Source: Escherichia phage PE37. Taken from it: a DNA stretch of 64,000 bases. The position numbers and the translations under genes were made by a program. Below the pieces are notes generated by a model, which saw nothing but the letters and a program-made list of their open reading frames with translations, was not told the DNA's origin and ran no database searches. Shown one piece after another: positions 43,383 through 46,044 of this stretch (its first letter is position 1; each line of letters starts with the position of its first letter). The stretch lies in the sequence record NC_054929.1; one strand, written 5' to 3'.

Positions 43383-44411
43383 ATGTCATCAATACCTTGG
43401 ATTGATAATGAGTTTGCGTATCGTGCATTAGCTCATTTACCTAAATTCACACAAGTAAATAACAGTTCAACTTTTAAATTGCGGTTTAGATGTCCTGTTT
43501 GTGGAGATTCAAAAACCGACCAAAATAAAGCCCGTGGATGGTATTATGGTGATAATAATGAAGGAAATATTCATTGTTATAACTGTAACTATCATGCACC
43601 AATCGGAATATATTTAAAGGAGTTTGAACCCGATTTATATCGTGAGTATATCCTTGAAATAAGAAAAGAAAAAGGTAAAAGTCGTCCAGTAGAAAAACCT
43701 AAAGAACTTCCTAAGCGACCTGAGAAGAAAATAATTAAATCTCTTCCGTCATGTGTTAGATTAGATAAACTGGCGGAAGACCATCCAATTATAAAATATG
43801 TAAAAGCTCGTTGTATTCCAAAGGATAAATGGAAATATCTTTGGTTTACAACCGAATGGCCTAAATTAGTTAATAGCATAGCACCGGGAACATACAAAAA
43901 GGAAATTTCTGAGCCTCGTCTTGTTATTCCAATTTATAATGCTAATGGAAAAGCTGAGTCTTTTCAAGGACGTGCATTAAAGAAAGATGCTCCTCAAAAA
44001 TATATCACCATTAAAGCTTATCCTGAGGCAACAAAAATATATGGAGTCGAACGAGTTAAAGATGGTGATGTATATGTTCTAGAAGGACCTATAGATTCAC
44101 TTTTTATTGAAAATGGTATAGCTATTACGGGTGGTCAATTAGACCTAGAAGTTGTTCCATTTAAAGATAGACGTGTGTGGGTCTTAGATAATGAACCTCG
44201 TCACCCTGACACTATCAAACGAATGACTAAATTAGTTGATGCAGGAGAAAGGGTTATGTTTTGGGATAAATCTCCCTGGAAATCAAAAGATGTCAATGAT
44301 ATGATTAGAAAGGAAGGTGCAACCCCTGAACAAATTATGGAATATATGAAAAATAATATTGCACAGGGGTTGATGGCTAAAATGCGGCTATCTAAATATG
44401 CCAAGATTTAA
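43383..44411 (+). CDS. 61: DNA primase gp61
   Basis: 342 aa; zinc ribbon CPVCGDS...CYNC; TOPRIM-like region. Confidence 0.93.
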   Translation: MSSIPWIDNEFAYRALAHLPKFTQVNNSSTFKLRFRCPVCGDSKTDQNKARGWYYGDNNEGNIHCYNCNYHAPIGIYLKEFEPDLYREYILEIRKEKGKSRPVEKPKELPKRPEKKIIKSLPSCVRLDKLAEDHPIIKYVKARCIPKDKWKYLWFTTEWPKLVNSIAPGTYKKEISEPRLVIPIYNANGKAESFQGRALKKDAPQKYITIKAYPEATKIYGVERVKDGDVYVLEGPIDSLFIENGIAITGGQLDLEVVPFKDRRVWVLDNEPRHPDTIKRMTKLVDAGERVMFWDKSPWKSKDVNDMIRKEGATPEQIMEYMKNNIAQGLMAKMRLSKYAKI

Positions 44412-44608
44412 ATTAACCCAACTAAAGCAAATGCTAAATCTACGAATGTATCAAGAGTAACTACTGGAATATTAATACCATGTGCAATTGCAACAGGTGA
44501 TAGAATAAAGTTCCAGAGTAAAATTCCTACCATAGCAGAAATAGTAAAAGCTATACGTTTCTTATTACCTTTTATGGCATTAACAAGTGCCATTAATTTT
44601 TGTACCAT
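44408..44608 (-). CDS. antisense small membrane protein (66 aa, 2 predicted TM helices)
   Basis: Only minus-strand gene in window; strong AGGAGGA RBS; ATAAATA late-promoter-like motif upstream on minus strand; stop overlaps gene 61 stop. Confidence 0.55.
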   Translation of the reverse strand: MVQKLMALVNAIKGNKKRIAFTISAMVGILLWNFILSPVAIAHGINIPVVTLDTFVDLAFALVGLI

Positions 44609-44648
44609 ATATATATATCCTCCTTTAAATTAATATTTATCATAAATT

Positions 44649-44678
44649 TGTTTACTTTCTCAGCTTGTTATGGTATTA
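44649..44678 (+). promoter_or_regulatory. T4-type early promoter
   Basis: gtttactttctcagcttgttatggtattat upstream of 44705 ORF. Confidence 0.5.
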
Positions 44679-44704
44679 TAAAATAAATTGCTGAGGATGA
44701 TATA

Positions 44705-45265
44705 ATGATTAATAAAATTGTACATGAAATGGCTTTAAACGGAGATTCATATAAAATATCTGCCGTAGTTGAAAATTTCATACTTAATAAAGTAAAAGAA
44801 TATTTCACTGATTGTTCAGTTAGTTATCAAGAAAAAATGGTTTTAATTGATGATACTGAAAAATCAAATAATTTGTTTTGCTCTAATTTTATAACTAAGA
44901 AGCGTACTAGAAGATTTGATATTGTTATTTCTCGCAATGGTAAAAAGCATATAATTGAAATTAAACACCAAGTTGGTGGAGGTACAGCTATTGATTCGGT
45001 TGGAATATATTTAGAAGATAAAGAGAAATTAAAAGAATACACAAAAACTGAAAATCCTGTGTCATTGATGATATTGGATTTTTTGCCATGCGGATATTAT
45101 CCACGTAATAAATGGACAAAAAGAGAATCATTTACTGATAATCCAACCATCCAAGCAAGGTTTAATGAATATGCTAAATCACAAAACGTGTTAGTATTAC
45201 TATCAAATACATATGATGAAGAATTGTATAATTCATTTTTTGCTGCAATAAATGAGAGAATATAA
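44705..45265 (+). CDS. putative PD-(D/E)xK-fold nuclease (186 aa), translationally coupled to dam
   Basis: Motif FDIVISR-x8-IIEIKH (D...E-x-K) in predicted beta strands; TAATG overlap with dam start; not present between 61 and dam in T4. Confidence 0.5.
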
Positions 45266-46044
45266 TGCTAGGAGCTATCGCGTATACAGGTAATAAACAA
45301 TCATTATTACCTGAACTTAAGCCTCACTTTCCGAAATATGACAGATTTGTGGATTTATTTTGTGGAGGTTTATCAGTGTCTTTGAACGTCAATGGTCCTG
45401 TATTGGCCAATGATATTCAAGAACCAATTATTGAAATGTATAAATGTCTTATTGATATATCATGGGATGACGTATTAAAAGTAATAAAGCAATACAAACT
45501 ATCAAAAACATCAAAAGAAGAGTTTTTGAAATTACGTGAAGATTATAATAAAACTAGAGATCCTCTTTTACTTTATGTTCTTCATTTTCACGGATTTAGT
45601 AATATGATTCGTATAAACGATAAAGGAAATTTTACTACTCCGTTTGGAAAAAGAACTATAAACAAAAATAGTGAAAAACGCTTTAATCACTTTAAACAAA
45701 ATTGTGATAAAATAATCTTTAGTTCATTGCATTTTAAAGATGTCAAAATTCTAGACGGCGATTTTGTATATGTGGACCCTCCGTATCTTATAACAGTTGC
45801 TGATTATAATAAATTTTGGTCAGAAGAAGAAGAAAAAGACCTTTTAAATCTTTTAGATTCTTTAAATGACAGAGGAATAAAATTTGGGCTGTCGAATGTT
45901 TTAGAGCATCACGGAAAGGAAAACACTCTTCTTAAAGAATGGTCTAAAAAATATAATGTTAAGCATCTTAATAAAAAATACGTCTTTAACATATATCATT
46001 CCAAAGAAAAAAATGGAACTGATGAAGTATATATTTTTAATTAA
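45265..46044 (+). CDS. dam: DNA adenine methyltransferase Dam (GATC)
   Basis: 259 aa, DPPY catalytic motif, near-identical to recalled T4 Dam. Confidence 0.95.

Follow-up and report, generated by a model that had tools for sequence, protein, structure and literature searches.

We found that, in a 64,000-nucleotide stretch of Escherichia phage PE37 (record NC_054929.1; the whole stretch is referred to here as the window), the gene for the Dam DNA methyltransferase is preceded by an open reading frame (ORF) of 186 amino acids whose product is predicted to adopt the fold of a PD-(D/E)xK restriction endonuclease. The window belongs to a T2-like Tequatrovirus. The ORF encodes a conserved nuclease-fold protein that is very probably tied functionally to Dam as a mobile two-gene unit, and we put at about even chances the fuller proposal that the two genes form a phage-borne Type II restriction-modification (R-M) cassette acting on unmethylated GATC. 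A preliminary description of this DNA, made from the sequence alone, had likened the pair to an R-M module; with a nuclease fold, invariant D, E and K residues, and pairing with Dam in all lineages and in three genomic contexts, this is still the best reading. Between the end of gene 61 (primase) at 44411 and the start of dam at 45265 is an interval of 853 bp, close to the roughly 850 bp with a 186-aa ORF first reported. The interval holds two genes, the 186-aa ORF on the plus strand and an antisense membrane ORF of 66 aa on the minus strand, the second of which the preliminary description had overlooked. The TAATG overlap between the nuclease ORF and dam was confirmed, the stop codon of one and the start codon of the other sharing a single A (Table 1).

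Structure prediction supported the assignment of the upstream ORF as a nuclease. The AlphaFold2 model of the 186-aa protein, made from an 8-sequence alignment (pLDDT 83.9, pTM 0.81), has the alpha-beta-beta-beta-alpha-beta core of Type IIP PD-(D/E)xK enzymes and corresponds to a whole small restriction enzyme of that type, lacking any additional domain for binding DNA at a long site. Foldseek placed MunI (PDB 1D02) among the top matches, with the best coverage (TM 0.57), and a search of a virus structure library returned just the homologue from phage MX01 and weak generic PD-(D/E)xK matches. MunI is an EcoRI-family Type IIP enzyme that shares only 12% identity with the protein and cuts at CAATTG, and the likeness of the model to MunI does not establish specificity. 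MunI and EcoRI are placed in the alpha branch, and the GATC-cutting MboI is listed with the enzymes that share the SsoII/PspGI/NgoMIV/Cfr10I framework (Pingoud et al. 2014, PMC4081073).

The putative active-site residues D72, E85 and K87 lie in predicted strands 66–77 and 80–88, and E23 lies in the first long helix. None of the four varied among 10 sequences with identities as low as 29%, and the same was true of H88, Q89 and the loop G93-T-A-I-D-S98, which directly follow the active-site residues. The restriction-endonuclease-like fold suggested earlier was borne out by structure prediction, and comparison of homologues found the D, E and K residues conserved; the D...E-x-K arrangement was likewise located in predicted strands, with the spacing corrected from x8 to x5. 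Comparison of codons indicated that the ORF is under purifying selection, with a ratio of non-synonymous to synonymous substitution rates (dN/dS) of 0.17–0.33 against T2, MX01 and KPV15, although dS was saturated in distant pairs.

At the sequence level the remote matches of the nuclease family were limited to restriction enzymes, and all were weak. The Pfam DpnII profile (PF04556) matched the window ORF with an E value of 0.0096 and 15.7 bits against a threshold of 23, the alignment covering the catalytic core alone (profile positions 153–235 of 278). This profile matched five of the ten family members (best E 8.3e-5), BanI also matched five, and PADLOC REase_II matched four (best E 5.3e-6). 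Searches of NCBIfam and of PDB sequences with the nuclease gave nothing significant; the single-sequence PDB search produced one insignificant match (E 0.68) and the PDB profile search none. The arrangement resembles the DpnII/MboI-type GATC systems in that a PD-(D/E)xK nuclease gene stands beside a D12-class GATC adenine methylase gene, and DpnII is the top, though weak, match over the catalytic core. It differs from them in its sub-threshold score, in its length (186 aa compared with about 280 for DpnII), in the order of nuclease before methylase with overlapping codons, and in its confinement to T4-like phages. Membership of the DpnII family was rejected on the basis of the partial coverage and of a score below the Pfam gathering threshold. 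Because the similarity is weak and sub-threshold, we regard the nuclease as a new small family of restriction-endonuclease fold rather than a DpnII member. The family is small, phage-restricted and absent from Pfam. An exhaustive HMMER profile search, covering 1.84 billion representative proteins, yielded only 12 clusters and no bacterial homologue, and all clusters that could be placed were in DNA of T4-like phages. The database names are 'hypothetical', save for that of phage Shinka (QXV73102.1), 'putative DpnII restriction endonuclease'.

We then compared ten lineages carrying the nuclease: the window, T2, MX01, KPV15 and the sequences designated L005, L006, L007, L028, L029 and L030. The next gene downstream was a D12-class orthologue of T4 Dam in all ten, and the methylase start lay within or abutted the nuclease ORF in nine, the exception being T2, where a 13-nt gap follows a frameshift. 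The conserved adjacent nuclease–methyltransferase pair expected of a Type II R-M system was thus found in 10/10 lineages, and at three genomic positions: between genes 61 and 56 (Tequatrovirus, Dhakavirus and metagenomic relatives), downstream of rIIB-denB (Klebsiella phage KPV15) and directly upstream of rIIA (L006). The window Dam itself matched Pfam MethyltransfD12 (E=1e-50) and TIGR00571 (E=8e-69) and was 97% identical to T4 Dam; the cassette-linked methylases were all T4 Dam orthologues at 52–97% identity. K11, S112, R116, P126, R130 and DPPY, which we take to be the DNA-contact and catalytic residues of T4 Dam, were invariant in all of them. Furthermore, the divergence ranks of the two proteins matched across lineages, at 64, 57, 41, 32 and 29% identity for the nuclease and 76, 73, 62, 55 and 52% for Dam.

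Dam also exists without this nuclease. The Dam of RB49, 47% identical to that of the window, is encoded at a fourth locus, that of nrdC, where a cysteine-rich ORF of 143 aa precedes it with a 1-nt overlap (L020, 39922–41165). The ORF upstream of RB49 Dam, RB49p064, was tried as a distant homologue of the nuclease and found to be unrelated (hhalign probability 0.1%), as was the ORF upstream of a Dam gene on a Campylobacter plasmid (3.8%). Among nine plasmid loci with T4 Dam-like methylases, the neighbour was an AlwI- or FokI-type IIS enzyme at seven and an unannotated large ORF at two. The closest relatives of T4 Dam on Firmicutes plasmids (33–41% identity) are mostly in such IIS restriction systems, and it is because relatives of T4 Dam sit in FokI-type systems that dam is labelled 'fokIM' in some phage records.

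Alignment of the 61–dam interval with T4 revealed that T4 lacks the intact ORF and carries only a remnant of it. Contrary to the preliminary description, in which dam directly follows gene 61 in T4, the two are separated there by a 309-bp unannotated spacer. This spacer consists of window positions 44412–44641 (97% identical, holding the 66-aa ORF) joined to 45178–45264 (98% identical), and the junction falls at a 3-nt ATC microhomology (44639–44641 and 45178–45180). The last 28 nuclease codons are kept, with a remnant recognizable at the protein level for residues 159–179. Because these retained C-terminal residues are conserved throughout the family as part of the protein proper, in members at other genome positions too, T4 represents the deleted state and the window has no insertion with respect to T4. 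The 'apparent insertion' originally described therefore does not hold against T4. It does hold against RB69, JD18 and KPV15, in which gene 61 and the small antisense ORF are followed at this locus by gene 56 and the whole nuclease–Dam pair of the window is extra.

The T2 ORF has been altered by a 1-nt loss in a T-run, which changes the last seven residues, shortens the protein to 181 aa and leaves the 13-nt gap to dam. Other truncated alleles were seen in phage 107 (181 aa, as in T2), ES19 (183 aa), G29 (142 aa) and KarlGJung (61 aa). The full 61–dam interval was present in 144 of the 502 phage records matching the locus, and in a search at the protein level the nuclease ORF turned up in 187 records, nearly complete in 153. 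Loss of the nuclease gene with retention of Dam is frequent, T4 being one example, and the 'orphan' Dam of T4 is probably the remnant of a two-gene R-M cassette: its methylase is nearly the same as that of the window, whereas the window dam has an intact upstream partner and the solitary state of T4 Dam arose from the 536-bp deletion. The nuclease ORF was already contained, unannotated, in the T2 dam sequence of 1988 (M22342). In the T2 record AP018813 the features of the interval are labelled 'head outer capsid protein' and 'putative head morphogenesis protein', and UniRef names the T2 product 'Head outer capsid protein'; these labels look like annotation errors.

The pair appears to move as a unit. 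The Klebsiella phages KPV15 and JD18 differ at the KPV15 pair site by exactly the nuclease–Dam pair, which in KPV15 is flanked by two copies of one early promoter of about 35 bp (GTTTACTTT...TGATACTATA; L003 2905–2945 and 4325–4365), while JD18 has a single copy (L022, about 2680–2730) and no pair. On the sequence, these promoter repeats look like the footprint of promoter-mediated gain or loss of the cassette, and promoter-mediated shuffling of modules has been described for T4-like phages (PMC4122927). These data also bear on the suggestion that the ORF is a free-standing homing or selfish endonuclease, which would cleave the DNA of phages without it at a long site, within dam or close by, and spread with its flanks during co-infection, much as SegF beside gene 56 in T4. 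In keeping with that, phages can have or lack the ORF, which lies between conserved genes and is intact in about 30% of the Tequatrovirus records; decay and loss recur in a cycle among its alleles; and elements of this kind abound in T-even genomes, segF being next door in T4. However, neither Pfam nor PHROG gave a match to the known families, Seg (GIY-YIG) or Mob (HNH), the only Pfam matches being the weak ones to restriction enzymes; the fold is PD-(D/E)xK, and the protein is a complete Type IIP-like enzyme without the added domain that a long site would call for. Unlike Seg and Mob, whose optional placement between conserved genes and variable presence among close relatives it shares, the nuclease has an obligate single partner gene. 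Every member adjoins Dam, with which it has co-diverged to the lowest identities found, and in Jiaodavirus the pair was gained or lost together at the promoter repeat and not at a cleavage site. This exclusive and ancient association, together with gain and loss of the pair at promoter repeats, weakens the homing explanation, which the preliminary description had left as its alternative. With a family never found away from Dam it is disfavoured, and we consider it improbable.

How an R-M cassette of this kind might work can be outlined. The two genes would be expressed on a single early transcript from the GTTTAC/TGnTAnnAT promoter, and ribosomes ending the nuclease ORF would reinitiate at the overlapping dam ATG, so that the nuclease would not be made without the methylase. 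The nuclease would be a compact PD-(D/E)xK enzyme of the EcoRI/MunI branch acting on a short palindrome, probably as a homodimer, with Mg2+ bound by E23, D72, E85 and K87 for cleavage. Its target site may be GATC lacking N6-methyladenine, the sequence methylated by T4 Dam; the linkage and the weak DpnII similarity suggest that the two enzymes share a recognition sequence and that methylation blocks cleavage. Dam would methylate the DNA of the phage itself, both virion and newly made, and so confer immunity, and the likely targets would be DNAs with unmethylated GATC, namely co-infecting relatives without Dam, other phages and the chromosomes of dam-less hosts. Recombination at conserved early-promoter sequences would move the cassette as a unit.

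Several observations weigh against the R-M interpretation. Enterobacterial hosts are Dam+, which would make their DNA immune and leaves the target unclear. The glucosylated hydroxymethylcytosine (glucosyl-hmC) DNA of the phage may resist the nuclease anyway, in which case Dam would be needless for self-protection and the strict linkage would go unexplained. The similarity to DpnII is sub-threshold and covers the core alone, in an ORF of 186 aa against a profile of 278 positions. In addition, the nuclease has decayed repeatedly (the T4 deletion, the T2 frameshift to 181 aa and the alleles of 142 and 61 aa), which argues that it is dispensable in laboratory-type hosts.

Some of these points could be accommodated by a methylation-dependent nuclease with Type IIM/IV logic that cuts G(m6A)TC in ordinary cytosine DNA, for example that of the host chromosome. 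The glucosyl-hmC DNA of the phage would then escape cleavage, the methylation that makes the substrate would come wholly or partly from Dam, and the pair would serve the degradation of host DNA. All cultured carriers belong to lineages with hmC or glucosyl-hmC, as judged by genes for dCMP hydroxymethylase and glucosyltransferase, and a search among them for one with unmodified cytosine found none, all having the hmC pathway. Dam+ hosts would offer an obvious and abundant target, and the strict linkage to Dam would be explained even if phage DNA needs no protection. The protein, however, does not have the DpnI-type architecture of a catalytic domain with a winged-helix reader of methyl-adenine, and membership of that Type IIM family was rejected; we consider this explanation about as improbable as homing. 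Also improbable is a nuclease-fold protein with another Dam-tied role. It might nick hemimethylated GATC in the manner of MutH, or act beside Dam as a DNA-binding or regulatory partner that does not cut. A link to a GATC methylase would suit whatever protein reads GATC, the PD-(D/E)xK enzymes include MutH, and the gene is frequently lost without obvious harm, but the close structural similarity to MutH that membership of the MutH/Sau3AI group of GATC nucleases would entail was not found.

We also counted GATC sites. Of the 16 four-base palindromes, GATC is the one most depleted in the window: 65 sites were observed against 210 expected, an observed/expected ratio (O/E) of 0.31 over 64 kb. It likewise ranked by far the lowest among four-base palindromes in the samples of KPV15, JD18 and RB69. 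The ratio was 0.09 in KPV15 (30 kb, L023), which like the window has both nuclease and Dam; 0.13–0.25 in JD18 (44 kb, L021/L022) and 0.14 in RB69 (30 kb, L024), where neither was found in the region examined; and 1.05 in RB49 (50 kb, L020), which has Dam only and in which the absence of gene 42 from its usual site points to unmodified cytosine. Depletion is thus equally strong in RB69 and JD18 and does not track the cassette, which also counts against the R-M interpretation, and it was rejected as evidence for the cassette itself. Because these cassette-less phages are depleted too, low GATC is a property of the hmC-containing Tevenvirinae and not of carriers. The counts, with no depletion in a coliphage that has a Dam of its own, suggest that in this group of phages GATC is a disadvantage when left unmethylated, and to that extent they give the R-M interpretation indirect support, though the sample is small and other causes are possible; the older literature offers an explanation based on the host, a further point on the side against.

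A more specific form of the R-M interpretation, which we think rather unlikely, is that the nuclease cuts unmethylated GATC even where the DNA contains hmC or glucosyl-hmC and is used by T-even-type phages against one another, with Dam as the immunity factor. If this were true, carriers would destroy co-infecting relatives that lack Dam. That would account for three things: the retention by T4 of a Dam with no apparent purpose once the nuclease was gone, the ability of T-even Dam to act on DNA that is modified, and the purging of GATC from the Tevenvirinae (O/E 0.09–0.31) but not from Dam-bearing RB49.

The features of the locus are collected in Table 1.

Table 1. Features of the gene 61–dam region, in window coordinates
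Feature	Position	Strand	Remarks
Small membrane ORF, 66 aa	44408–44608	-	RB69ORF029w-like, phrog_2024; outside the nuclease–Dam cassette
Segment missing in T4	44642–45177		536-bp deletion; promoter, Shine-Dalgarno sequence and codons 1–158 gone
T4-type early promoter of the cassette	44650–44679	+	GTTTAC and extended -10 TGgTATTAT; motif match at a conserved position
Shine-Dalgarno GAGGA	44693–44697	+	7 nt before the ATG of the nuclease ORF
Nuclease ORF, 186 aa, putative R gene	44705–45265	+	PD-(D/E)xK restriction-endonuclease fold; phrog_8706 'unknown function'
Putative active-site codons	44771–44965	+	E23 44771–44773, D72 44918–44920, E85 44957–44959, K87 44963–44965
TAATG stop/start overlap, nuclease ORF/dam	45263–45267	+	TAA 45263–45265 shares its last A with ATG 45265–45267
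dam, putative M gene	45265–46044	+	T4 Dam-type D12-class N6-adenine (GATC) methyltransferase

The early promoter claimed in the preliminary description was recovered as a T4-early-type match, composed of GTTTAC (44650–44655) and TGgTATTAT (44671–44679) with a 17-nt spacer counted from TTTACT. A bare sigma-70 scan of this AT-rich DNA was not above chance (8 sites against 13.8 expected). The motif was conserved upstream of every homologue examined: GTTTAC...TGnTAnnAT stands at the same place upstream of the homologue in T2, MX01, L007, KPV15 and L006, in flanks that have otherwise diverged. An inverted repeat, CTCAGC...GCTGAG (44659–44664 and 44690–44695), brackets the -10 element, and a shorter pair, CCAG...CTGG, occupies a similar place in MX01; the repeat could be an operator or a stem-loop. 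Just 3' of dam and upstream of gene 56 (46045–46070), TTGCTTACA lies 11 nt before TATAAT, which from its sequence looks like a middle promoter with a MotA box. The annotation of T4 places oriA within gene 56, a short way downstream of the position matching 46045–46070.

The 66-aa ORF has two hydrophobic segments, predicted as helices, and a strong ribosome-binding site, and in T2 it bears an RB69ORF029w-like label. It is convergent with gene 61 and overlaps the gene 61 stop by 4 nt. It is kept at about 97% identity in T4, yet is unannotated in NC_000866.4, and it is also found at the cassette-less locus of RB69 (RB69ORF029w), JD18 and KPV15. Its place beside gene 61 is thus stable, with or without the cassette.

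Virus-encoded R-M is known from chloroviruses and is rare in virulent phages. Chlorovirus PBCV-1 encodes R.CviAI and M.CviAI, a GATC system, and R.CviAI degrades the unmethylated DNA of its host, a eukaryotic alga. The pair described here is similar in that a virus carries both a restriction enzyme, here putative, and a methylase, and differs in that the hosts of cassette carriers are Dam+. Papers on chlorovirus R-M, including the CviAII system of PBCV-1, are cited in PMC4081073. Our literature search for this ORF, or for any T-even restriction enzyme, found no description. The preliminary statement that such a module had not been seen described needs amending: we found no functional study, but the ORF itself is present in T2 and in about 150–180 phage records, one of them, Shinka, with the DpnII label. 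A survey of 831 phage genomes counted nine R-M systems, and argued that solitary methylases rarely arise by decay in situ (Oliveira et al. 2014, PMC4176335).

If the R-M interpretation is true, a complete R-M system would be present in T2 and in about one-third of the T4-like coliphages, in contrast to the near absence of such systems from virulent phages in that survey (PMC4176335), and T4 Dam would be a counter-example to its second conclusion, a clear instance in which loss of the nuclease in situ left a methylase on its own. The Dam of T2 and T4 is the textbook solitary phage methyltransferase, and its purpose has never been settled. Should the upstream nuclease be an active GATC restriction enzyme, the role of Dam would become directly testable as protection from, or immunity to, a phage-borne nuclease. 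Of particular interest, T4 Dam would be recast as the survivor of a decayed cassette.

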